IMG/VR virus record: IMGVR_UViG_2974587864_000001
DNA: 64,000 bases
Strand: one strand, 5' to 3'
Source of the DNA: a virus
Lineage: Duplodnaviria; Heunggongvirae; Uroviricota; Caudoviricetes; Straboviridae
The notes under the pieces are model-generated. The model worked only from the letters and a program-made list of their open reading frames with translations. It searched no databases and had not been told where the DNA came from. A program made the translations under genes and the position numbers. Positions 3,766-50,607 of the stretch are shown piece after piece (the stretch's first letter is position 1; the number at the start of each line of letters is the position of its first letter).

Positions 3766-4046
3766 TGGCGATTGAAGACGTACAGGGCTATAAGCCCCAC
3801 TCGAAAGAAAAGATCGACAAAGTAAACCGCATCAAGGCCGCAGAAGTTGCCCTGGGCGAAATCTTCAAAGAACTGGATGAAGAGTATTCAAGTGATTATG
3901 CGGTATCCGATACCGATTCGTTCACTACAGAAGAACTCGATGCGATGCTTGAACGTATCCATCAAATCCAAAAGGCGAAAGACCGACTGAAAGAAGCCTC
4001 TATGTGGGCGTGTCGTGCGGTGTTCCAGCCAGAAGAAAAGTATTAA
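3765..4046 (+). CDS. hypothetical protein (93 aa)
   Basis: ORF, ATGA-type overlap with grcA-like gene. Confidence 0.5.
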   Translation: MAIEDVQGYKPHSKEKIDKVNRIKAAEVALGEIFKELDEEYSSDYAVSDTDSFTTEELDAMLERIHQIQKAKDRLKEASMWACRAVFQPEEKY

Positions 4047-4053
4047 AAATCAA

Positions 4054-4082
4054 GCCGTTGCCGAAAGGTAGCGGCTTTTTTC
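4054..4082 (+). terminator. rho-independent terminator (imperfect hairpin + T-run)
   Basis: GCCGTTGCC-GAAAG-GTAGCGGC followed by TTTTTT. Confidence 0.5.
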
Positions 4083-4117
4083 GTTTTTATGCAAAATAAT
4101 GCTTGCACTGAATCGTG

Positions 4118-4168
4118 AGTGTGGTAAAGTACACACATCGAAACGAAACAGAGAAAAGGAACGAGAAA
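4118..4168 (+). promoter_or_regulatory. promoter/leader cassette: extended -10-like TGGTAAAGT followed by conserved leader ACACACATCGAAACGAAACAGAG
   Basis: same 5' leader recurs at >=8 other gene starts in the window; TGCTT (MotA-box-like) at 4101-4105. Confidence 0.4.
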
Positions 4169-4369
4169 ATGATTAAATTAAACCCAATCGACGCAGCAAA
4201 ACATTTCGTAGTAGTTGATAATGGTGTTGTGGTTGCAGAAGTTAAGGAAATCGCTTTCTCTGACCCAGACGCGGAAATGAAAAGAATGGGCTACTCTTAC
4301 CGGATCGAGCACAAAAACGGTGAAGTAGAATACGCCGACGATATCTCTGACGTTCAGGCGAAATTCTAA
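4169..4369 (+). CDS. hypothetical protein (66 aa)
   Basis: ATG 4169 preceded by AAGGAACGAG RBS inside conserved leader; track ORF start 4115 lies inside leader and is rejected. Confidence 0.55.
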   Translation: MIKLNPIDAAKHFVVVDNGVVVAEVKEIAFSDPDAEMKRMGYSYRIEHKNGEVEYADDISDVQAKF

Positions 4370-4375
4370 AAAGTT

Positions 4376-4405
4376 GTTGACCTAATCTGGGGGCTGTGAG
4401 AATAT
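4376..4405 (+). promoter_or_regulatory. sigma70-type early promoter TTGACC-N17-GAATAT with IR GGGGCT/AGCCCC bracketing the -10
   Basis: same architecture (IR-gtga-[-10]-IR) as promoter at 138; followed by shortened leader CCATCGAAACGAAACTGAGG. Confidence 0.4.
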
Positions 4406-4437
4406 AGCCCCATCGAAACGAAACTGAGGATGACATT

Positions 4438-4728
4438 ATGAAAACTTACAACATGAAAGAACTGGTTTGCTTCAACACTCGTCGTGAAGCCCGTGCGTAT
4501 GTTCTGGCTGCTGGTAAAAATACCTCTGCTGTAATCGACCTGGGTACTGATAAAGATGTTGGCGCACGTTGGGCTGCTGTTGTGGTTATCGCTGCTCCTG
4601 TGACTCCTGTTAAAACTCTGGTTCTGGGTGCGCGTAAAGCCGAAACTCTGAAAACCAGCACTTGCAATAACAGAGGTGTTCATAATGTCACCGTCATCAA
4701 AAAACGTAGCTTTGGTTTGAGGGCTTAA
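4438..4728 (+). CDS. hypothetical protein (96 aa)
   Basis: ORF with GAGGATGACATT-ATG. Confidence 0.55.
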   Translation: MKTYNMKELVCFNTRREARAYVLAAGKNTSAVIDLGTDKDVGARWAAVVVIAAPVTPVKTLVLGARKAETLKTSTCNNRGVHNVTVIKKRSFGLRA

Positions 4729-4731
4729 CCA

Positions 4732-4962
4732 ATGAGTACCAAAGAATTAGAACAGAAAGTAATGGGGTTCATGAGTAACAGCGAAGATCGCTATGCAAAA
4801 CACCTCATTGTCGAACTGATCACCGCGTTACGTCGCCGCGACAAAGAGATCGAAGAACTTAAAAATGCATCGGTTCAGGTTGTCTATAAAGATCGCGAGC
4901 GTAGTAGCTGGGAAAAAGAATGGGATGCAAACCCCCAAGACCGCCACCTTTTCGGGAAATAA
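4732..4962 (+). CDS. hypothetical protein (76 aa)
   Basis: ORF. Confidence 0.5.
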   Translation: MSTKELEQKVMGFMSNSEDRYAKHLIVELITALRRRDKEIEELKNASVQVVYKDRERSSWEKEWDANPQDRHLFGK

Positions 4963-4964
4963 TC

Positions 4965-5192
4965 ATGAGTTCCATTAACACAGAAAAAGATTTTGTGATG
5001 TTTGTTGGGGTACAGACTGTAAAGAAAGATATCTTCGGTAAACTGTATCTGTCAAACGACGATCGCAACCCCGCATCATTCGAAACCGATGAAGATGCAT
5101 ATATCGCGAAGAACAACAGCGATAACGAAGACATTCGCCAGTATGCGCGGATCTATAACCGTGAAGTAACAACCCGTCTGGAGAGAGCATGA
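4965..5192 (+). CDS. hypothetical protein (75 aa)
   Basis: ATG 4965 right after upstream stop (track start 4920 overlaps upstream gene in another frame). Confidence 0.45.
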   Translation: MSSINTEKDFVMFVGVQTVKKDIFGKLYLSNDDRNPASFETDEDAYIAKNNSDNEDIRQYARIYNREVTTRLERA

Positions 5193-5440
5193 TGCGAGAA
5201 GGTATTGAAGTAAGAACGTTCCAGTTCGAAATGCGTCGTATCCCAGAAGCATCAATGAATCTCATTCGAGAACACAACGTGAAAATCGTAGAAATTGATG
5301 CATACGCGGGTACTGATCTTTATAATGATGCGAAGATTGACAGCATTGATTTAGACCTTGAGGGTGATATCGGGGATCTGAATAAGCTGGCTATTGCATT
5401 GAATGCAGAAACCAACAAATACGGGTATACAATCAAATGA
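5189..5440 (+). CDS. hypothetical protein (83 aa)
   Basis: ORF, ATGA overlap. Confidence 0.5.
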   Translation: MMREGIEVRTFQFEMRRIPEASMNLIREHNVKIVEIDAYAGTDLYNDAKIDSIDLDLEGDIGDLNKLAIALNAETNKYGYTIK

Positions 5441-5667
5441 AATATATTCTCGAATATCATGAGCATCAAATTACCGAAGCAATGATCGATAAGATGCGGG
5501 TATATAACCAAAACATTACCAGCATCAAACCGCTATCAGTGTGTCGTGAATTTGGGGGATACTCCTTCGCGATGTACACAAATTCCGAAGACGACGCAAC
5601 CGCGTATCTGAAAAGTATCGGTGCAATATTCGACAAATTCGAAAAAGTATGGAAGGTAGGTTTCTAA
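5437..5667 (+). CDS. hypothetical protein (76 aa)
   Basis: ORF, ATGA overlap. Confidence 0.5.
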   Translation: MKYILEYHEHQITEAMIDKMRVYNQNITSIKPLSVCREFGGYSFAMYTNSEDDATAYLKSIGAIFDKFEKVWKVGF

Positions 5668-5828
5668 TGAAAAAGTATTTTATTGAAGCGGCAGATCGTA
5701 TCGTTCTTGCTCTGTTGAACTGGAACCGTCGCCAGGATGTCTCTATCATGGCATCAACCAACGGGACAACATATGACCGTTATGATCCGGCGCGTGGACT
5801 CCATAAACCTTACGAGGTGAAAGAGTGA
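5667..5828 (+). CDS. small hypothetical protein (53 aa)
   Basis: ORF below track threshold; ATG overlaps upstream stop (TAATG). Confidence 0.3.
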   Translation: MKKYFIEAADRIVLALLNWNRRQDVSIMASTNGTTYDRYDPARGLHKPYEVKE

Positions 5829-6129
5829 ATGTCGAAACGATGGATGTAATGTTGGTCATTGTATCTTTTATTTTGGGTTATTGGGCGGCATCATGAAATA
5901 CTATGGATTCAAAACGAGTCATTTCGGTAAAGCATACCGCACTGACAACATCGATCGCAAACGTCCGTACTATGATTCACTGGTACGCGCAGGGCGCAAA
6001 CGTGCTCGCCAGGAAGGGAAGAAGCAAGGAGAATCCGAGTTATGAACTGGAAACAAATAGTCGGAATTATTGCAGGTGTTATCATCGGGCGCGGTTTGTA
6101 TGATCTAATCTTTTCGGCGGGGGTTCATT

Positions 6130-6570
6130 ATGGACATTGGTTCGGGTAGTCAATATCCATCATGCGCATTGAGCAACTTCTCCCCGCATCCGTTCACGTT
6201 CGACGGGGTAGAGTGTGCATCAATGGAGGGCTTTTTACAAAGCCTGAAATTCAGTAATCCAGATATGCAAGCGCATGTGTGTACGCTGGTTGGTAAAGCC
6301 GCCAAGTTCAAAGGCAAGAAAAAGAAATGGTATCGCGATCAGACCTTATACTGGAAGGGTACACCGATTCACCGTGAGTCCGAAGCGTATCAGATTCTTA
6401 TCGAAAACGCGTACAATGCTCTTTTCCTGAATGACGGGTTCCGCCGTGCGCTGGCTGCAACCGGAAAAAGTACCTTGACTCATTCAATGGGAAAGAATAA
6501 GATGAATGAAACGGTACTCACTGAACGCGAGTTTGTCCGAAATTTAACCCGATTGAGAGATCTGTTATGA
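6130..6570 (+). CDS. NADAR-domain protein (YbiA/DUF1768-like; NAD- and ADP-ribose-associated, putative ADP-ribosyl hydrolase)
   Basis: motifs FSNFSPHPF..DG...S.EGFLQSLKF ... KF.. ... ENAYNALFLNDGFRRALAATG characteristic of NADAR/YbiA family. Confidence 0.65.
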   Translation: MDIGSGSQYPSCALSNFSPHPFTFDGVECASMEGFLQSLKFSNPDMQAHVCTLVGKAAKFKGKKKKWYRDQTLYWKGTPIHRESEAYQILIENAYNALFLNDGFRRALAATGKSTLTHSMGKNKMNETVLTEREFVRNLTRLRDLL

Positions 6571-6845
6571 TAGAGTATAAAGATTATGATGAAAGAGTAG
6601 AATGCGCGTTCCTGTTCAAAGGCGCGATTAACCCGCTGGCATTACTCCACGCGCAGGGCGCTTTGAGTTCTACCCTGATTATGGGTGTTATCTACAAAGC
6701 GGGTGTGTATTACGTTACCATCGGCGCGAACAACATTAACGTGATCAACAGCTACGTTGAAAAATGTAAGCTGAGAGATATTGTTTTCGATAAAGTCGAA
6801 ATGGATGTTCCGGGCTTCGATGCTGTTTATATGTACAAGGGTTGA
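6567..6845 (+). CDS. hypothetical protein (92 aa)
   Basis: ORF, ATGA overlap. Confidence 0.5.
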   Translation: MIEYKDYDERVECAFLFKGAINPLALLHAQGALSSTLIMGVIYKAGVYYVTIGANNINVINSYVEKCKLRDIVFDKVEMDVPGFDAVYMYKG

Positions 6846-7096
6846 TAATGGAATACGCAGTTATTTTCGAATGTAGTGATATTGATTCTGTCGTGTTCTC
6901 GCTTGCGCGTAAGTGCAATCAGGATGTTGTGTCTGTAGAGACATATCGCCGTGATATGCGCCCATCACCAGAACCGACTACATTCATTCGTATTGGGTTC
7001 AAATCGAATCGTCGTTTTGAAATGGATATGTTTCTTGCGTCATTAAATGCTCGCAAATCTGAAATATTTTATGACCGTTATGAGGTTAAATCTTGA
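6842..7096 (+). CDS. hypothetical protein (84 aa)
   Basis: ORF, ATGA overlap. Confidence 0.5.
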   Translation: MIMEYAVIFECSDIDSVVFSLARKCNQDVVSVETYRRDMRPSPEPTTFIRIGFKSNRRFEMDMFLASLNARKSEIFYDRYEVKS

Positions 7097-7710
7097 AACC
7101 AGTTATTCTTACCGACATTGACGGGATCGTCGTAAAATGGCAAAGCGGCCTCCCGTTCTTTTTGTCAAAACACAACATGCCGACCGATATTGCCCTGGAT
7201 ATGGTTACGGATGAAAAGTTCCGTGATATGACCGAAATCTTCGGGTGTGATCATCAACTGGCGAAAATCTTAATGGAAGAATACAATAACAGTTCGTTTA
7301 TTCGCTATCTAAGCGCGTATGACGATGCGTTAATTGTGATCAACCGTCTGAAAACCAAATACGATTTCGTGGCTGTCACGGCGCTGGGAACCACTCCTAC
7401 GGCAAGCCTTAACCGTATTGCGAACCTGAATACGCTGTTCCCTTCTGCATTCAAAGAAGTGATGGTTGTCGGGCATGGTGAAACCAAAGTACACCGCTAT
7501 CTGGAAGCGAAAGCCAAATATGGTAATCGTCTGGTTTGCTTCGTTGATGATCTTGCGGTAAACTTAAACGAATGTCATAACGTCATCAGTCAGTTGCCGT
7601 TATTCCATATGTTGCGTGGTGAACGTGAAACCCCGTGGTCGCCTCACCAGTCAGTTAAATCATGGTTTGAAATCGAAGAGAAATTAAATGATCTTACAGA
7701 TTCTAAATGA
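7093..7710 (+). CDS. HAD-superfamily hydrolase, 5'(3')-deoxyribonucleotidase-like
   Basis: N-terminal ILTDIDGIV (DxDG nucleophile motif) and later VDD motif typical of HAD phosphatases/NT5C-type nucleotidases. Confidence 0.5.
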   Translation: MKPVILTDIDGIVVKWQSGLPFFLSKHNMPTDIALDMVTDEKFRDMTEIFGCDHQLAKILMEEYNNSSFIRYLSAYDDALIVINRLKTKYDFVAVTALGTTPTASLNRIANLNTLFPSAFKEVMVVGHGETKVHRYLEAKAKYGNRLVCFVDDLAVNLNECHNVISQLPLFHMLRGERETPWSPHQSVKSWFEIEEKLNDLTDSK

Positions 7711-9211
7711 ACTCGCTTCGACTCTGAAAATCTCAGAGAAGGAAGCGATCCTGAAACGTAATGCAGGTAATGACCTGCTGAAAGAGATTTTCCGCATTAC
7801 GTACACGAAACAGATTATGTTTCACATTAAGAAGTTTCCGCAGGTGGACGGCAAGCCAGGCACAACCCCGCTATCGAATGCTATCGCGGATTTGATGTCT
7901 GATTTGGCAACGCGCAAATATACGGGTAATGCAGCCCGTGATCGTCTGCTGGATATCGTATCATCAGTGAATGAGAATGATCGCGAAGTTCTTCGCCGTA
8001 TCATTAACCGCGATCTGGAATGTGGTGCTGGTACAACGTTACCAAACCGCGTATGGAAGAAACTCATTCCAGAACAGCCCCAATGCCTCGCTACGCCGTT
8101 TAGTGAGAAAGCCTTAAAACGTATTCGATTCCCTGCTTACTCGCAGCTTAAAGCCGATGGTGCGCGTTGTATGTCCGATCTGTTAGAGAATCAGATCCGC
8201 AAAGCAACCCGCGCGGGAAATGAGTATGAAGGTTTGGTGAATCTGGACAAGGATCTGAAAAAGATTCGTGAATATCTGGGTTATGATGTTGTACTTGATG
8301 GAGAACTGATTTATGTCCCTGCTGAAAAAACTGCTGTCGTTCCTTCGAACAGCGTTCCATTTAGTCTTGCTGGGTTTATGGGCGATGACGACGATTCTGT
8401 TTCTGAACTTGTGGCAGATGTTAGGCGGGAAGCTACCGAGAACGAGACACAAGCGGAAGCGAAACGCGAAGAGGGCAACGGGATTGTAAACAAATCCCTG
8501 AAAGGCACTATCAGCGACGAAGAGCAGCGCAATATCGTTTATGTTGTCTGGGATATCGTACCGTATGAAGTATACTATGGCGATGCTCCGAGTGTTCAAC
8601 CATATTGCGATCGTTTCTCTATCCTGGAAGGTGCGCTGGCTGGCTCTGGTGTAACATCGGTTAAGCTGATCCCTTCTATCCTGGTGCAGAACTATGCGGA
8701 AGCGAAAAAGGATTACAACAATTACCGCAATGACGGTAAAGAGGGTTCAATCCTGAAAAACGTTGATTTCAAATGGAAGGATTCACGCGTTGCGGATCAG
8801 GTGAAGTTGAAGAACAAAACCCCGATCGAACTGCGAATCATCGACGTGTACGAACACACCAAAGAACCTCATAAGGTTGGCGGGTTCGTGGTTGAGGACT
8901 TATCAGGAGAAGCCAGAACAAACACAGGTTCCGGTCTGACTGATACGGACTACCGATACGATGAAGACGGTATTAACCGCGTGTACATCCCGTTAGAAGA
9001 ACGTGGTGAACTGGATCGCGAATACATCATGGCGAACAAAAATGACTATATCGGCGCTATCGTCGAAATGGAAGTTGACGGACTCCAGAAATCGAAAACG
9101 CGTAAGAAAGGCGAACCTGAGTTCAGTTTCTTCCTGCCAATCATCAAGAAGATTCGACGCGATAAGACCGAACCGGATGATATTCACGTTATCTTCGCTG
9201 ATCTGTTTTAA
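7688..9211 (+). CDS. 30: ATP-dependent DNA ligase (T4 gp30 homolog)
   Basis: N-terminus MILQILNELAS..EKEAILKRNAGNDLLKEIFRITY parallels T4 ligase MILKILNEIAS..KQAILEKNKDNELLKRVY; adenylation site QLKADGARC; LIPEQPQ. Confidence 0.9.
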   Translation: MILQILNELASTLKISEKEAILKRNAGNDLLKEIFRITYTKQIMFHIKKFPQVDGKPGTTPLSNAIADLMSDLATRKYTGNAARDRLLDIVSSVNENDREVLRRIINRDLECGAGTTLPNRVWKKLIPEQPQCLATPFSEKALKRIRFPAYSQLKADGARCMSDLLENQIRKATRAGNEYEGLVNLDKDLKKIREYLGYDVVLDGELIYVPAEKTAVVPSNSVPFSLAGFMGDDDDSVSELVADVRREATENETQAEAKREEGNGIVNKSLKGTISDEEQRNIVYVVWDIVPYEVYYGDAPSVQPYCDRFSILEGALAGSGVTSVKLIPSILVQNYAEAKKDYNNYRNDGKEGSILKNVDFKWKDSRVADQVKLKNKTPIELRIIDVYEHTKEPHKVGGFVVEDLSGEARTNTGSGLTDTDYRYDEDGINRVYIPLEERGELDREYIMANKNDYIGAIVEMEVDGLQKSKTRKKGEPEFSFFLPIIKKIRRDKTEPDDIHVIFADLF

Positions 9212-9232
9212 ATAGCACTTTTTGCTAAAGAA

Positions 9233-9303
9233 GCCCCTTGCATATGTGAGGGGCTTTTTGTATATTACACACATCGAAACGAAACAGACAAAAGGAACAT
9301 CCC
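9233..9303 (+). promoter_or_regulatory. stem-loop + extended -10 (TGTATATT) + conserved leader ACACACATCGAAACGAAACAGACAAAAGGAAC cassette (PeSL-like)
   Basis: hairpin GCCCCTTGCATATGTGAGGGGC + TTTTT (terminates ligase) immediately followed by promoter-like element and the repeated leader. Confidence 0.5.
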
Positions 9304-9576
9304 ATGCAAATCACTAAAGAACTCGAAGGCAAAGTAATCGTTCTGGTAAATGAAGACCGTTTGGCACAACTGGGTAACGGTGGTGAAAAACTGCCAGCGG
9401 ACGCACTCGAAAGCCTTTCTAAAATGCGTGTGATGTGTGTTACTGACGGTTGGGTTACTTGTCTGCCTCTGAACGACGAAGACAAAGCCGTATACGATGC
9501 ACAAGCGGATTCATGGGATATCGAAGTACCTCTGGTGAACATCGAAGTTGAAGAGTGCTACGAAATCGAAAAATAA
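9304..9576 (+). CDS. hypothetical protein (90 aa)
   Basis: ORF after conserved leader. Confidence 0.55.
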   Translation: MQITKELEGKVIVLVNEDRLAQLGNGGEKLPADALESLSKMRVMCVTDGWVTCLPLNDEDKAVYDAQADSWDIEVPLVNIEVEECYEIEK

Positions 9577-21184: not shown

Positions 21185-23431
21185 TTAGATTTTGACTTCT
21201 TTTTCTTCCAGGACGATTTCACATTCGAATGATGTGGTTTCCCAGACTTTCCAGAAATCGGATGGAATATTATCTTCTTTCGGAAGAATATCTTTTGCAG
21301 CGATAGAAACTTTGGTTTCTTCGAAGTCCAGATCCGCGAACCATGCATGGGCTACTACAACACCGTACATTACGCGACTTAAACGGGCATTCAGTTTACG
21401 GACTTCCTGAATCGTTGCCTTTGTCTGCTTATCAAGATACTCGACTACCTGATCTTTGTCAAGCGCATCCAGTTCAGATTTCACCTGATCGTAAGCCCAC
21501 AGGATAATCAGGTCGCCGTTGTTCAGTTTCTTCTTACCTTCTTCACGCTTCGCGACGGTAGCCGCTACAGCAGGAAGGGAGGAAACACCCTTGATTTTCA
21601 CGTTCAGTTCTTTCGACATGTAAACATCAGTCGATTCTGTGCGCTCAACCTTCGGAGAGAACCCGTAATCACGAATACCCTGTTCAGACAGCCATTCACC
21701 CGCAGCCTCACCAAAGCGCTGTTTCAGCCCTTCTGCGTTGCGCAGTCCGATCGCGTTGTCACGGAAGAACTTCATAACCTTCTGACGGCCTTTCAGGATT
21801 TCCAGACGCACGTTATCAGTCACGAACTCTTTACCGCTTAACCCGCGAGTCATGCCACGGTTAACCAGAGGCAGAGAGGTAAAGTCTACCAGAACCGACA
21901 TACGATCATCACCGATTTTTTCCAGCGGCTTGATAGTCAGGCCAGAAGCACGAAGGTTTTTCAGTGTCGGAATATCGGTTTCCAGCGGCAGAACTTTAAC
22001 GTTCACGATACCATCTTTAACGATGGTGAAGTTACGCACCTGCTTAGTTTCGACTTTTTCCGGCAGACCGAATTCTTTCTGTTTGCTTTCTGGGATAGTC
22101 ACATACCCTTCCAGATCCGTGTTGATGGAAATGTTCGGACGGGAACTGTTACCCACCAGATGTTTAACCGATACTTTGGTTGTGGTTTGGGTAAATTTCG
22201 GTGTCCAGACTTCATGCGCTACCATTTGCGCCGCCAGTGCTTTACGTTCTTCTGGGGTTGCAGCGTTTGCGATCTGTTCGGTCAGTTGATCCAGTGTATC
22301 ATCTTCTTTCTGTACAGTCTGACGGCCTGTGCGGTTATACGCCCAGTGCTCAGAAGACAGGTCGATCACTGTGTCAGTTTGTGCCAGCAGTTCGAGCGCA
22401 TCAACCAGAGTAAACGCGTTTTCGTCTGGAACCATGTTGTAATCAATACCATCAACGAAACGCTGTGATGGATCTACAACAGCCTGTGCAATCAGGTCTT
22501 TCGCGTTGGAGTAGTCCTGTTTGGTAAAGCAGTTGTCATACGCTTTGATCAGACGGACATCACCCAGCTTTTGAAGCACTTTCCATGCCAGATCAGGGTT
22601 CATTGTGTGCAGTGCATGATAAAGCACGACATACAGAACTTGCTGTTCGCTGGCGATGTTCGGATCGAATCCGTCAACATCATTAATCGCGTTTTCACCC
22701 AGCGCCCAGATGTTTTTGATGTGTTCTGGAACCAGCACAACACCGTTTGCAGCGTTCAGGACATACACGCGCCCTTCGTCCAGGTAGATCGCATGGGTAG
22801 CATCAGCAACTTTGACTTCGATACGTGCGGAAGTCTGCGCGGTGATGATTTCGTTAAATGCTGGTTCGTATGCGTCGAAACCTTCAACGAATTTGTGCAA
22901 TGCGTTGGTTGCTTCTGCCATTTTTTCCAGCAGAGGACGGTTTACATAATAACCGTATTCCAGGAACGCGATACTGTTGAAAGTCAGTGGCAGAACCGCA
23001 CACGCTTTCAGAATATCATCGGTACGCCAGCAGTTATCATAACCGTCTGTCAGGAAGATCAGGCTGTTCAGGTTGCCGTTTTCGGATTGCAGGTCGGTAG
23101 CGATTTCCGCAGCCAGATTCAACGGCTCAACAAAGCCAGTGCAACCCGTAGGTTTCAGATAACGGTCGATAGCCGCGCAGATGTTAGACAGGTCAGACAC
23201 ATTGCTAACCTTCTCACCACGGAACACCGTGCCGTAATCGCCTTTGCTGGAGAAGTACAGGATTGAAACGGTATCATCCTGTTTAACCAGACTCGCCAGG
23301 TTTGCTTTCAGATGTTTACGGATCTTAGGCAGTTCGTTATACATTGAACCGGATACGTCACACACGAAAACATGGTTTGTCGGGGTTGGCTTCGATACAG
23401 CGTTTTTGAATTCGATATTTGTGATTGACAT
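21185..23431 (-). CDS. von Willebrand factor A (vWA/MIDAS) domain protein, 748 aa
   Basis: N-terminal VFVCDVSGSMYNELPKI ... DTVSILYFSS ... TGCTGF ... LIFLTDGYDN = DxSxS...T...D MIDAS pattern. Confidence 0.7.
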   Translation of the reverse strand: MSITNIEFKNAVSKPTPTNHVFVCDVSGSMYNELPKIRKHLKANLASLVKQDDTVSILYFSSKGDYGTVFRGEKVSNVSDLSNICAAIDRYLKPTGCTGFVEPLNLAAEIATDLQSENGNLNSLIFLTDGYDNCWRTDDILKACAVLPLTFNSIAFLEYGYYVNRPLLEKMAEATNALHKFVEGFDAYEPAFNEIITAQTSARIEVKVADATHAIYLDEGRVYVLNAANGVVLVPEHIKNIWALGENAINDVDGFDPNIASEQQVLYVVLYHALHTMNPDLAWKVLQKLGDVRLIKAYDNCFTKQDYSNAKDLIAQAVVDPSQRFVDGIDYNMVPDENAFTLVDALELLAQTDTVIDLSSEHWAYNRTGRQTVQKEDDTLDQLTEQIANAATPEERKALAAQMVAHEVWTPKFTQTTTKVSVKHLVGNSSRPNISINTDLEGYVTIPESKQKEFGLPEKVETKQVRNFTIVKDGIVNVKVLPLETDIPTLKNLRASGLTIKPLEKIGDDRMSVLVDFTSLPLVNRGMTRGLSGKEFVTDNVRLEILKGRQKVMKFFRDNAIGLRNAEGLKQRFGEAAGEWLSEQGIRDYGFSPKVERTESTDVYMSKELNVKIKGVSSLPAVAATVAKREEGKKKLNNGDLIILWAYDQVKSELDALDKDQVVEYLDKQTKATIQEVRKLNARLSRVMYGVVVAHAWFADLDFEETKVSIAAKDILPKEDNIPSDFWKVWETTSFECEIVLEEKEVKI

Positions 23432-27354: not shown

Positions 27355-27587
27355 TCCGTTTTAATACCGTGTCGGTATGCGTCAATCCCCAGTGGGGTAA
27401 TCAGCAACCATGCTTTCGAATTATCGTGATAACCCGTTACCCTTCGAGCGTAACCTTTTTGAATCAGGGCATCACGCCCTGATTTGCTGGGTACGTCATC
27501 GAAATCTAAGTCTAGCACTTTAGTTGCGTATCCGTAAAGTTTATACAGAACATCAATTTCAGCGCCGGACAATTTAGGATACATCAT
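27345..27587 (-). CDS. hypothetical protein (80 aa)
   Basis: ORF. Confidence 0.5.
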   Translation of the reverse strand: MMYPKLSGAEIDVLYKLYGYATKVLDLDFDDVPSKSGRDALIQKGYARRVTGYHDNSKAWLLITPLGIDAYRHGIKTEWH

Positions 27588-28585
27588 TTGTAATACCCCA
27601 CAACATGATCGCTGTATACGCGTTCGATGAAATCGTTCCAGAATTCGCGATCAACTTCTTTCGGATATGTTGAAATCGCTGCAAGGCGTTCGACTTCACC
27701 CATGACTTCTTCCAGCTTTTCCTGTACGGTTGCAAACGGTACGCCGCCAGCTTTAACCAGTTTCAGGAATGCGCTATCAGGCAGAGGATAAACGATATCA
27801 CCATCTTTGTAAATCTGGATCAACTGCATACCGCCGCGCAACGCGTGACTTAATGCTTTCCAGTCGATCCCGTTGTTGGCTTCTGCTTGTCGTGCGCGTT
27901 CTCCGTATTCATCCCAGAGTTTATACACAGACTTGCGCATTTCATTGGCTTTGATCGTGAACTGGAATTTACGCCCCAGCACTTCATAGAAGTCCTGACA
28001 ACCAGATTTCATTGTTGTGTCGGTAACGAATCGACAGAACTCGTTTGTAGGGAAACGATCCTTGATGTCAGACACTTTCACTTCACGCGTATAGCGTTTC
28101 ATATCTGGTGTGAATTCCTGAATACCGCCGATCGTTTCGGTTTCTTTCAGTACATCGACAACTTCGCGCAGTGCAGCCAGTCGGGAACCCTTCACACCAT
28201 ATTTCGCGGCTTGCTTACGAACATAACCGAACAGGCCAGTTAGTTCAGTGGTGTAAAAACGCCAGCGGTTAGCGCGGATATACTGCCAGATTTCAGAGTT
28301 AGCGATCAGCTTGTCATCCGAAGCGTGAAGCATATCGAGCGCTACGGTATCACCATCACACGCAAGACTAATGAACTTAGTCAGACTATACAACTGACGG
28401 TCAACGTCGTCTACGGTGTTTTTAGAGCTTTTATCGCCTGTGCTGGTGTCAATAGTCTTCGGGGCTTTCCCCAGGAGAATATCGCGCGGGTGCGGGAGAA
28501 AGATCCCTTTATAGTCTTTGTCGCTTGTCGGTGTGTTCAGTCCGTACAGGTGAGAACCGAACACGGTTTCCATTACAGTTTTCAA
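27584..28585 (-). CDS. Pol-beta-superfamily nucleotidyltransferase-like protein (333 aa)
   Basis: N-terminal FGSHLYGLNTPTSDKDY = [GS]-x10-DxD nucleotidyltransferase motif. Confidence 0.5.
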   Translation of the reverse strand: MKTVMETVFGSHLYGLNTPTSDKDYKGIFLPHPRDILLGKAPKTIDTSTGDKSSKNTVDDVDRQLYSLTKFISLACDGDTVALDMLHASDDKLIANSEIWQYIRANRWRFYTTELTGLFGYVRKQAAKYGVKGSRLAALREVVDVLKETETIGGIQEFTPDMKRYTREVKVSDIKDRFPTNEFCRFVTDTTMKSGCQDFYEVLGRKFQFTIKANEMRKSVYKLWDEYGERARQAEANNGIDWKALSHALRGGMQLIQIYKDGDIVYPLPDSAFLKLVKAGGVPFATVQEKLEEVMGEVERLAAISTYPKEVDREFWNDFIERVYSDHVVGYYK

Positions 28586-30297: not shown

Positions 30298-31353
30298 TCA
30301 GAGTCCCGTAAACGCTACGATAATCTGATAGTGGTCATCGAAGAACTCACCACGATTTTGTTTGACTTCGTGCATAGGCATCCAGAACGCGTCTAACGCA
30401 TCGTCAGAACCGCCCATAATACGGGGCAGACTTCCATCATTGTTAGGTTCTAACTTGATGTACTGCGCCACAGTCGGTTTTGAGAAGTATACGGAACGTT
30501 TCGGATGATCGAACAGCATCGAATTACGGATTGAACCACGAATAACCTTTTCAGGAACCTTGATTCGTACCTCTTCGAGCAGTTCGCGGATTGCACAATC
30601 CAGGAACGTTTCATTTGCGTTTTTGTGTCCACCAGGAAGGGCTAACGCGTCTTTACCTGGTGCGAACTTACGACGAATTACCAGCAGGTGATTGTTACAC
30701 ACAACCACACTATCACCCGTGCAGCAGTTCAGCGCGTCGGGGTATGGGTAGTTTTTGAATTTCTCCAATTCGCTTTCCCATTTCTCGTATTCGTAGAATA
30801 AACGCCAGAACGTGTCTTCCATCATCCATTTGTCGATATAATCGACGGTTGCTTGAGGAACAAAGCGCAACAGTTTCTTATCCCATCCGTTTTTGTGGTT
30901 GAAGATAATCGGACGCAGATCGGTTGCTGATAGATCCTTGCCGTCAACCTGAACAGGATCAACAGGTACGTGTGTCCATCCGAACGCTTTAAGCCAGTAT
31001 GAACCCGCATCTTTTTCGTAACCGTAGATAGCGATTTTGTCGCCTTTGGTTTCCCTGATAGCAGTACGAACAGAGGTTTTCCATTTCTCTTCGTTGTAAA
31101 GATAATCTGGAATATGTTCAAACTGAACACGAACAACATCTTCGATCGGGAAGTTAGCGTTTAACCATGAGAAGATCATCGTTTGACGCTCACGCGCTGT
31201 CAGAGGGTTTAAAACGTTAGGGTAAGCATATGCTGAACCCAGAAGGATGTAAACGATCTTTGCTTCTTCGAGTGCTTTACGCACCATTGCTGCATGACCA
31301 TTATGGAAGGGTTGGAATCTGCCAATTACGACAGCTTTATCAAATTGTTTCAT
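30298..31353 (-). CDS. bifunctional nicotinamide-mononucleotide adenylyltransferase / Nudix ADP-ribose pyrophosphatase (NatV/NadM-Nudix-like)
   Basis: N-terminal VIGRFQPFHNGH (HxGH nucleotidyltransferase motif); C-terminal Nudix box GGHKNANETFLDCAIRELLEEV; start moved to ATG 31353 (GGAG RBS). Confidence 0.8.
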   Translation of the reverse strand: MKQFDKAVVIGRFQPFHNGHAAMVRKALEEAKIVYILLGSAYAYPNVLNPLTARERQTMIFSWLNANFPIEDVVRVQFEHIPDYLYNEEKWKTSVRTAIRETKGDKIAIYGYEKDAGSYWLKAFGWTHVPVDPVQVDGKDLSATDLRPIIFNHKNGWDKKLLRFVPQATVDYIDKWMMEDTFWRLFYEYEKWESELEKFKNYPYPDALNCCTGDSVVVCNNHLLVIRRKFAPGKDALALPGGHKNANETFLDCAIRELLEEVRIKVPEKVIRGSIRNSMLFDHPKRSVYFSKPTVAQYIKLEPNNDGSLPRIMGGSDDALDAFWMPMHEVKQNRGEFFDDHYQIIVAFTGL

Positions 31354-31529
31354 AACGTGCTCCACGTTTAAAGGTTAATCATAAAACAGACGCAATCACC
31401 AATACACCAAGAAAACCGCCAATAAAGCCGAAGAATAGCGAAATGAAGATAGTAAGGATGATCTGTTTTATGTTCATTATAGTATTCTCGTTTTAGGAGT
31501 CAAGCCCCCAGAGTGGGGGCTTTAAAACC

Positions 31530-34798: not shown

Positions 34799-35003
34799 GA
34801 TTAGCTCTCTCCACTGCTACCGCATCACGAACAGCATCTTCGATTTCATTTTCAACGAAATCCAGGATATCCGCTGTAATGTCGTCGATACAGGATTGAT
34901 TATAGTTGCGTGAATCAGGATCATCATCTTCGGCATAATCCTGATACGCTTCGCCCAGTTGTTTCAGCTTGTGTTTTAACAGCTTTTGTTCTTGCGGTCT
35001 CAT
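34791..35003 (-). CDS. hypothetical acidic protein (70 aa)
   Basis: ORF. Confidence 0.45.
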   Translation of the reverse strand: MRPQEQKLLKHKLKQLGEAYQDYAEDDDPDSRNYNQSCIDDITADILDFVENEIEDAVRDAVAVERANHD

Positions 35004-35500
35004 GATAAATCCGCCTTACGTGGATCAACCGATGGATCGAAGTGAACAACGATGATCGGGTAATCTCCCGTACACTCGTCAATAATAGCGCTAATACGCA
35101 GCCAATCGCCCCCAGCAAGCCCCGCACCGATAAGAGGGGTAACGATAGGCAATTTTTCAGGAAACGCACTGGCGCGTTCTACGGCGCTCACAAAGCATGA
35201 CCGGATTGCATCATAATCCACTTGTGGGCCAGTACCCCAGAATTTAAACTGAGTGTAGGCATTGAAGACAATCTGACCTTCTTCCGTCATGTAGATGGAG
35301 TTAGTGCCTAACTTACGCTGATCGCCTTTCATCGTCAGCGCATCAATTTTGAACGCACCAGGGATTTTGTGCTTCACTTCTTTAGCAATACCCGCGCCCA
35401 TGTTGCAATAGCAGTTACACCCGTGAATCAAGTGTACTTTTCGTTTCAGGAACAACTCTACAGCGTTCCCTTTGATTTCTTTAATAATCATTTTCATCAC
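35000..35500 (-). CDS. macro-domain protein (ADP-ribose binding / ADP-ribosyl hydrolase family)
   Basis: HGCNCYCNMGAGIAKE ... TPLIGAGLAGGDW match macro-domain ligand-binding loops. Confidence 0.7.
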   Translation of the reverse strand: MMKMIIKEIKGNAVELFLKRKVHLIHGCNCYCNMGAGIAKEVKHKIPGAFKIDALTMKGDQRKLGTNSIYMTEEGQIVFNAYTQFKFWGTGPQVDYDAIRSCFVSAVERASAFPEKLPIVTPLIGAGLAGGDWLRISAIIDECTGDYPIIVVHFDPSVDPRKADLS

Positions 35501-49820: not shown

Positions 49821-50197
49821 TTAGGCAATGCCCCGAAAGACAGCAGCCCCATACGATGATCGTTATCTGATTCACCAGTGCTAAATTCAAATTCTTCACC
49901 GCTGATACTGATAGCGCGGAAACCGTCTTTCAGGTATGGCAACAGATACAGAGGGATCAGCATCATGTTTGAATCGTCGCTCCACTTACGGAAGCCCAGA
50001 TTTTTCATTTCTTCCAGCGTCAAATCATTCGGATCGACGGGTTCGAAATCAGGGGAAGCGTAAAGGCGTCCAGGCAGATCGCGAATATTTTTCACGGTGA
50101 ATGAATCACCCCATGACTGATACGCGATAGGTTCAGCGGCGCGGGTTGCGGTAGCCAGAAGGATCATTTGACAGATTTGAAAAGTTGTTGCTTTCAT
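49817..50197 (-). CDS. secreted protein (126 aa, signal peptide)
   Basis: MKATTFQICQMILLATATRAAEP. Confidence 0.5.
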   Translation of the reverse strand: MKATTFQICQMILLATATRAAEPIAYQSWGDSFTVKNIRDLPGRLYASPDFEPVDPNDLTLEEMKNLGFRKWSDDSNMMLIPLYLLPYLKDGFRAISISGEEFEFSTGESDNDHRMGLLSFGALPK

Positions 50198-50607
50198 GAT
50201 GTATATCCCACAAGTTTAGATAGAAGGTGTCCCATAGTCTTACGCGCATGATCGCGGATCTGGCTATACGGAACATATTTGAAACCGTCCATTTCTGTGA
50301 TGGTTCGCCCGTTCTTCACGAACGTTGACGCACAGAAGCATTTATCGGCTTCGGGGTAATTATCGCCTTTATACACGAATAAGTAAAGCTCTTTTTTACT
50401 GGTATAATCCAGTCTTCCGAGGCTTTCCAGTTCGTGCGGTTCAACAAGAACTCCGGTTTCTTCGAAGCACTCACGGATCGCAGCGTGAATAGGTTCTTCG
50501 CCTTTTTCGATATGCCCCTTTGGGATGTCCCAATGAGGCGTTTCGGTTGCGTGACCCATCAAAACGCTGCCGTTATTCAGGAAGAGAATACCAGCAGACC
50601 GTTCCAT
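50194..50607 (-). CDS. Nudix hydrolase
   Basis: Nudix box GHIEKGEEPIHAAIRECFEETG. Confidence 0.75.
   Translation of the reverse strand: MERSAGILFLNNGSVLMGHATETPHWDIPKGHIEKGEEPIHAAIRECFEETGVLVEPHELESLGRLDYTSKKELYLFVYKGDNYPEADKCFCASTFVKNGRTITEMDGFKYVPYSQIRDHARKTMGHLLSKLVGYTS

Follow-up and report, generated by a model that had tools for sequence, protein, structure and literature searches.

The open reading frame at positions 6130..6570 (+) of the window, as we call the whole stretch of 64,000 nucleotides that was analysed, encodes a 146-residue protein that, judged by its sequence, is an ortholog of bacteriophage T4 gp30.3 (AdfN) and a typical representative of a family described before, hence of a kind already known. 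Its main role is probably (at roughly 0.8) the removal of DarT1-type guanine ADP-ribosylation from phage DNA. For this protein the analysis itself established that it belongs to the family, is orthologous to and syntenic with T4 30.3, has the NADAR fold, keeps the catalytic residues and retains its C-terminal helix; from the T4 ortholog and the biochemistry of NADARs we infer its substrate (guanine-ADPr on DNA, not thymine-ADPr), its mechanism and its role against DarTG1.

Over bases 5000-9300, the window has the same sequence (100% identity) as Cronobacter phage vB_CsaM_leE (hereafter leE; KX443552.1 / NC_048646.1; Straboviridae, Pseudotevenvirus), whose record position ~48465 corresponds to window position 1. 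In that record 6130..6570 is the CDS HWB01_gp094, labelled 'hypothetical protein'. The frame, which starts with ATG and whose coordinates include the stop codon, is a real gene and not a chance ORF, because its product strongly matches Pfam PF08010 and PHROG 652 and has homologs in 1508 phage records. A G-rich run (GGCGGGGG, 6116..6123, +), read from the sequence 6 nt 5' of the ATG, is a possible ribosome-binding site, and the stop codon shares bases with the start codon of the gene that follows (ATGA). The gene lies inside a long co-directional series of small genes that ends at the DNA ligase. By scanning positions 4000-9500 for promoter and terminator consensus sequences, we found no more sites than in shuffled sequence and no promoter directly 5' of 6130..6570. 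Since no such signal rose above the shuffled background, the timing of its expression is taken from T4 only, by analogy with which the surrounding genes would form an early cluster.

Against PF08010 (Phage_30_3, 'Bacteriophage protein GP30.3'), the 146-residue protein scored 187.5 bits (E 1.3e-55; cut-off 36 bits), with residues 9-144 matching profile positions 2-138 of 138. It also matched PHROG 652 (E 8.7e-53), to which gp30.3 is assigned in a T4 record as well, and it aligned with T4 gp30.3 over nearly the full length of both proteins (residues 1-146 with 4-152, 43% identity, E 3e-35). We regard its place in the gp30.3/AdfN family of phage NADARs as close to certain. This family is large: 1503 of the 1508 phage records matched with a query coverage of at least 80%, a database of 5.8 billion proteins held 4498 clusters of the family, and clustering at 50% identity gave 1450 representatives. 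The leE protein falls into a sub-clade whose members are 62-99% identical and come from phages of Cronobacter, Klebsiella, Enterobacter, Aeromonas and Vibrio, and it is ~42% identical to Tequatrovirus-type alleles. The first-pass annotation, made from the sequence, had described a phage NADAR and had not recognised this already named gp30.3/AdfN family.

The position of the gene points to the same ortholog. The order in T4 is 30.3, 30.2, 30.1 and ligase, and in leE it is 30.3, two small ORFs (PHROGs 7604 and 6222), the 30.2 homolog and ligase. The 30.2 homolog (7093..7710, +, 205 aa) is 47% identical to T4 30.2 (E 3e-58) and both belong to PHROG 420; the ATP-dependent DNA ligase (7688..9211, +), homologous to T4 gene 30 according to the annotation of the identical record and the T4 gene order, anchors the synteny of the 30.x cluster. 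The leE protein thus resembles T4 gp30.3/AdfN in its size, its core-only architecture, its place upstream of 30.2 and ligase, its Glu, Lys and His residues and its C-terminal helix, and differs from it by its sub-clade and by the two extra small ORFs before 30.2. These ORFs (6567..6845 and 6842..7096, both +; 92 and 84 aa) have no Pfam match, and nothing stands at the same place in T4. As for the 30.2 homolog, it is shorter than the 278-aa T4 protein, to which it is similar over T4 residues 1-208; no Pfam model matches it, and its 3' end overlaps the start of the ligase gene by 23 nt.

Apart from these phage proteins, gp30.3-type NADAR domains were seen in fusions in five metagenomic proteins (P0127, P0194, P0206, P0167 and P0265), which may be real or artefacts of gene calling. 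They occur as tandem copies or as a C-terminal domain after BspA-type LRRs or after an Lgt, FtsW/RodA-like or D-Ala-D-Ala-ligase-like region. No coherent hint at function came from the domains fused to them (LRR, Lgt, FtsW-like).

The NADAR fold of the product is supported by a profile match and by the structural neighbours of a predicted model. The Pfam NADAR model PF08719 matched the protein only below its cut-off (15.6 bits against 35.1, E 0.02), and sub-threshold matches to it were found in 10 of 57 family members, the best at 1e-4. Phage proteins of this type are covered by a separate Pfam model, PF08010, apart from PF08719. With PF08719 below threshold, the link to the NADAR superfamily stands on profile-profile and structural evidence. 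By using hhalign, we compared an alignment of 57 family sequences with E. coli YbiA (93.7% probability, E 1.9e-7) and with YbiA plus the P. nicotianae NADAR (93.6%, E 2.1e-7, residues 10-146), and sequence searches of the PDB with the protein or with the family profile returned nothing meaningful. An AlphaFold2 model built from a 26-sequence alignment (pLDDT 87.9, pTM 0.85) has beta-hairpins at residues 22-29 and 72-81 and five helices, in agreement with the NADAR topology described in PMC9503650. Foldseek placed YbiA (2b3w, E 3.9e-5), the G. lovleyi NADAR (8bat) and the P. nicotianae NADAR (8bau) at the top of the PDB and only noise below, so that the three solved NADAR structures are the sole significant neighbours of the model. 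The NADAR/YbiA signature that the first-pass annotation had read from the sequence is therefore weak by PF08719 and real by hhalign and by the AlphaFold2 model. That annotation had also named the absence of a NADAR fold from a structure prediction as evidence against its call; the fold is present, and the top Foldseek neighbours are all NADARs.

The residues expected of an active NADAR are in place. For their assignment the 8bau sequence was taken from the YbiA search and aligned via YbiA, the chain numbering of 8bau being that of the paper plus 2. The putative catalytic Glu33 (codon 6226..6228, +) corresponds to T4 E36, YbiA E48, E43 of the P. nicotianae NADAR (Pn) and E88 of the E. coli C7 NADAR (EcC7), and the predicted phosphate- and adenine-binding catalytic Lys40 (6247..6249, +) to T4 K43, YbiA K55, Pn K50 and EcC7 K95; the roles of the Glu are described in PMC11543638 and PMC11825919 and those of the Lys in PMC11543638. 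The Lys stands 7 residues past the Glu in every NADAR compared. Among 57 family representatives, E33 and K40 are each conserved in 56 and H118 in 55. His118 (6481..6483, +) lies in the last beta-strand, where T4 also has His, Pn has E125 and EcC7 has D171, and it aligns within one residue of the Glu in YbiA 'VEH' (the equivalent of Pn E125). This agrees with published work, according to which the last-strand residue separates NADARs of the YbiA type (Glu) from those of the DarG1 type (Asp) and of the phage (gp30.3) type (His) (PMC11125620, PMC11543638, PMC12945103).

Between these residues lies a basic loop, K56-W67 (KAAKFKGKKKKW, 6295..6330, +), defined by alignment over the 57 representatives and via YbiA and 8bau. 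By alignment, K59, G62 and K63 map to K75, G78 and R79 of the loop that shields the pyrophosphate in Pn, with residues 62-65 modelled at low confidence (pLDDT below 50). K59 corresponds to EcC7 K115 and to Gln in T4; G62 and K63 are Gly and Arg in T4, and Trp75 is Trp in T4 and W89 in Pn, these three positions being unmapped in EcC7. The C-terminal alpha-helix (residues 132-145, 6523..6564, +; DSSP, pLDDT ~95) is intact and can be aligned to the C-terminus of the T4 protein. The RB69 allele, which has lost its last 15 residues to a frameshift, is inactive (PMC11825919). Some tblastn matches in relatives end at residue 136 and looked like an RB69-like truncation; translation of the Invicta gene gave an identical full-length C-terminus, and we consider these ends an alignment artefact.

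What is known of the family comes mostly from T4. Its gp30.3 was first recognised as a NADAR by bioinformatics and then shown in vitro to hydrolyse guanosine-ADPr on DNA and not thymidine-ADPr (PMC11125620). Johannesman et al. (2025) named it AdfN, for anti-DarT factor NADAR, and showed that it is both needed and sufficient for the resistance of T-even phages to DarTG1, an effect established for the alleles of T4 and T2: deletion of adfN makes T4 sensitive to DarTG1, ectopic AdfN rescues RB69, the E36A and K43A variants are impaired, and the purified protein takes ADP-ribose off DarT1-modified DNA (PMC11825919). AdfN neither binds DarT1 nor acts on DarTG2 (PMC11825919), and a transposon screen found 30.3/adfN to be conditionally essential on DarTG1 hosts (bioRxiv 10.1101/2025.11.20.689424). 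Full function was seen only during T-even infection (PMC11825919), and outside it T4 AdfN does not neutralise DarT1 (PMC11825919, PMC11125620). More broadly, 'phage NADAR' is one of four NADAR families and consists of the core domain only (PMC12945103).

By analogy, the leE ortholog would be a minimal, core-only NADAR enzyme made from the series of small same-strand genes that precedes DNA ligase. Upon infection of a host with a DarTG1-type toxin-antitoxin system, DarT1 would be released and would ADP-ribosylate guanines in the phage DNA, blocking replication. The ADP-ribose would then be held by Lys40, the basic K59/G62/K63 loop and Trp75, and Glu33 together with His118 would hydrolyse the N-glycosidic bond between the ribose and guanine N2, making the DNA replicable again. 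Orthology and synteny with T4 AdfN thus bear out the earlier proposal of a phage NADAR that likely reverses DarT-type guanine ADP-ribosylation. The DarT target named there holds for DarT1 (guanine) and not for DarT2 (thymine), which in T4 is the task of the macro protein Tk.4/AdfM (bioRxiv 10.1101/2025.11.20.689424).

The identity of the leE allele to the assayed T4 protein, a mere 43%, may count against this role. Moreover, because T4 AdfN is fully active only in T-even infection, the activity of leE AdfN may depend on a partner. A homolog of AdfA (T4 gp61.2), the other known anti-DarT1 factor, was not detected in the whole leE genome (tblastn, E below 0.01), so AdfN would be the only known anti-DarTG1 gene of this phage. 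No usable report of DarTG in Cronobacter, Klebsiella or Enterobacter turned up in the literature searched. We also looked for a phage-encoded or neighbouring ADP-ribosyltransferase (ART), such as the Alt-like enzymes near T4 gene 30: none is annotated in the leE record, and the neighbours of 6130..6570 are small phage ORFs, the 30.2 homolog and ligase, with no ART. The only large unlabelled ORF checked as an ART candidate, a 748-aa 'hypothetical protein' at 21185..23431 (-), carries a von Willebrand factor A domain at its N-terminus and is not an ART.

The leE protein can be told apart from the other characterised NADARs. DarG1, the NADAR antitoxin of DarTG1 (G. lovleyi 8bat, E. coli C7), is encoded next to DarT, has Asp in the last strand and carries an N-terminal extension (8bat, 219 aa), whereas the leE gene is an orphan without an adjacent DarT and its core-only product of 146 aa has His118; moreover, the function of DarG1 in uninfected cells cannot be replaced by T4 gp30.3 (PMC11825919, PMC11125620). 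Consistent with this, PADLOC found no NADAR-type DarG match in the product, only a weak match to PDC-M42C. E. coli YbiA (2b3w), an N-glycosidase of riboflavin intermediates, and the P. nicotianae NADAR (8bau) are ~20% identical to the leE protein, have a catalytic Glu instead of His in the last strand and differ in biological role; in the alignment, YbiA lacks the beta-hairpin insertion seen at residues 72-81 of the leE protein. AdfN(Bas32) and AdfN(Bas60) of T5-like and Vequintavirinae phages are, like T4-type AdfN, orphan phage NADARs directed against DarTG1. In contrast to the leE protein, which belongs to the gp30.3 cluster, they are reported to have been acquired independently from other NADAR branches and to be active without T-even infection.

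Could the enzyme mainly serve another substrate? Before any biochemistry, a survey of viral NAD+/ADPr genes proposed from context that phage NADARs act on soluble ADP-ribose-derived molecules (PMC9503650), here cyclic ADPR isomers used as immune signals or by-products of RNA repair, instead of ADP-ribosylated DNA. The prediction fits the presence of Macro, Nudix and NAD+ salvage genes in the same phage, which according to that survey co-occur above expectation. Yet we found no experimental backing for it in any member of the gp30.3 family, both the phenotype of the T4 ortholog and its activity in vitro are clearly directed at DNA, and the basic surface loop fits a nucleic-acid substrate; we therefore consider soluble ADP-ribose unlikely as the main substrate. 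The nucleic acid could also be RNA, with guanosine-ADPr placed on tRNA or mRNA by host RNA-targeting ADP-ribosyltransferases as the physiological substrate and DNA as a side activity. NADARs do hydrolyse RNA G-ADPr in vitro (PMC12945103), so DNA need not be their sole substrate. However, the sole in vivo phenotype of the family is against DarTG1, a DNA modifier, and the literature covered names no defence system that ADP-ribosylates RNA specifically at guanine, which makes a primarily RNA-directed enzyme quite improbable.

An inactive or decaying allele retained by linkage only has a natural precedent in RB69, but the leE protein is full length, with its C-terminal helix and all three key residues intact; it is 95-99% identical to proteins of many related phages, and at least 80% of it is covered in 1503 of the 1508 records. 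We hold such decay to be very improbable. A housekeeping N-glycosidase of the YbiA type, destroying reactive intermediates of the riboflavin pathway, would be in line with a weak match to TIGR02464 (E 0.0016) and with YbiA being the closest solved structure by Foldseek. The match, at 18.7 bits, is far under the NCBIfam cut-off of 73.7, riboflavin genes are absent nearby, the T4 ortholog acts on DNA and the family-defining Glu is replaced by His118, a residue that by itself effectively refutes this function. A DNA-directed AdfN active against DarT1 remains the reading that we prefer.

Within the AdfN family, the leE and T4 alleles differ beside the active site. Of the 57 representatives, 47 have K and 4 have R at position 59 (K/R in 51), where T4 AdfN has Gln; position 67 is W in 53 of them and Arg in T4. 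The leE protein keeps both K59 and W67, and its loop 56-67 has 8 K/R against 3 in T4. T4 AdfN is thus off the consensus of its own family at this place (T4 locus L002:2992-3447, compared with window 6295..6330). In EcC7 NADAR, K115 is dispensable for catalysis and required in cells to neutralise DarT1 (PMC11543638). Because K59 aligns with this residue, which T4 has replaced by Gln, we tentatively raise the idea, doubtful as it is, that AdfN of the leE type may be able to act more on its own than the T4 enzyme does. The difference at K59 and in the loop could be the reason that T4 AdfN does not serve as an antitoxin unless a T-even phage is infecting the cell. If so, the leE allele alone would rescue DarT1 toxicity and unrelated phages.

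The same phage carries other genes for ADP-ribose and NAD metabolism. The earlier annotation had assigned domains to three of them, and its calls agree with Pfam: Macro (E 1.3e-6), cytidylyltransferase-like plus NUDIX, and NUDIX. It had gathered them with the NADAR gene into a dispersed toolkit, whose domains are right and whose genes are largely conserved, known genes of the T4 type (30.3, tk.4, nudE); the co-occurrence of Macro, NADAR and Nudix in large phages was already published (PMC9503650). The macro-domain gene (35000..35500, -) is an ortholog of T4 Tk.4 (36% identity, E 2.6e-25); the alignment runs from 35491, where the ATG is the likely true start. It also matches the macro region of the PADLOC DarG model (E 4.7e-8), and it sits in a tk-tk.1-tk.2-tk.3-tk.4 arrangement, as in T4. 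The T4 protein has recently received the name AdfM, as a factor against DarTG2 (bioRxiv 10.1101/2025.11.20.689424). With orthologs of both AdfN and Tk.4/AdfM, Pseudotevenvirus phages would be equipped, like T4, with one enzyme against each of the two DarTG types. The third gene, at 50194..50607 (-), encodes a 137-aa Nudix hydrolase orthologous to T4 NudE (Pfam NUDIX E 6.8e-16; 40% identity, E 1.7e-17), for which the T4 record lists FAD, ApnA, ADP-ribose and NADH as substrates.

For 6130..6570 itself, we found no support here for the links to Thoeris, DSR and CBASS that had been suggested; they are plausible only for an NMNAT-Nudix and Nampt pair. The first of these genes (30298..31365, -), annotated as 'cytidyltransferase' with a start at 31353, encodes a bifunctional protein, NMN adenylyltransferase-like plus Nudix (Pfam CTP_transf_like and NUDIX; PHROG 395/3462). 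Its Nampt (nicotinamide phosphoribosyltransferase) partner lies outside the window (L007:40170-41592; record positions 152634-154056). Together the two resemble the NARP2 pathway of NAD+ reconstitution and salvage, as far as the summary of that pathway in PMC13464706 goes. Nampt is annotated as two adjacent overlapping ORFs, gp249 and gp250, which suggests a frameshift, a sequencing error or a pseudogene.

The gene at 6130..6570 brings no new biology of its own. It does allow the 'hypothetical protein' of leE and of most of its ~1500 relatives to be given a functional name, that of an AdfN-like phage NADAR and probable anti-DarTG1 DNA ADP-ribosylglycohydrolase, which can be used for annotation and for predicting the host range of therapeutic phages of Klebsiella, Enterobacter and Cronobacter. 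Finally, we observed elsewhere in the window (27584..28585, -) a nucleotidyltransferase of the RlaP type, associated with an RNA-repair pathway, which is the ortholog of T4 NrdC.11 (52% identity).
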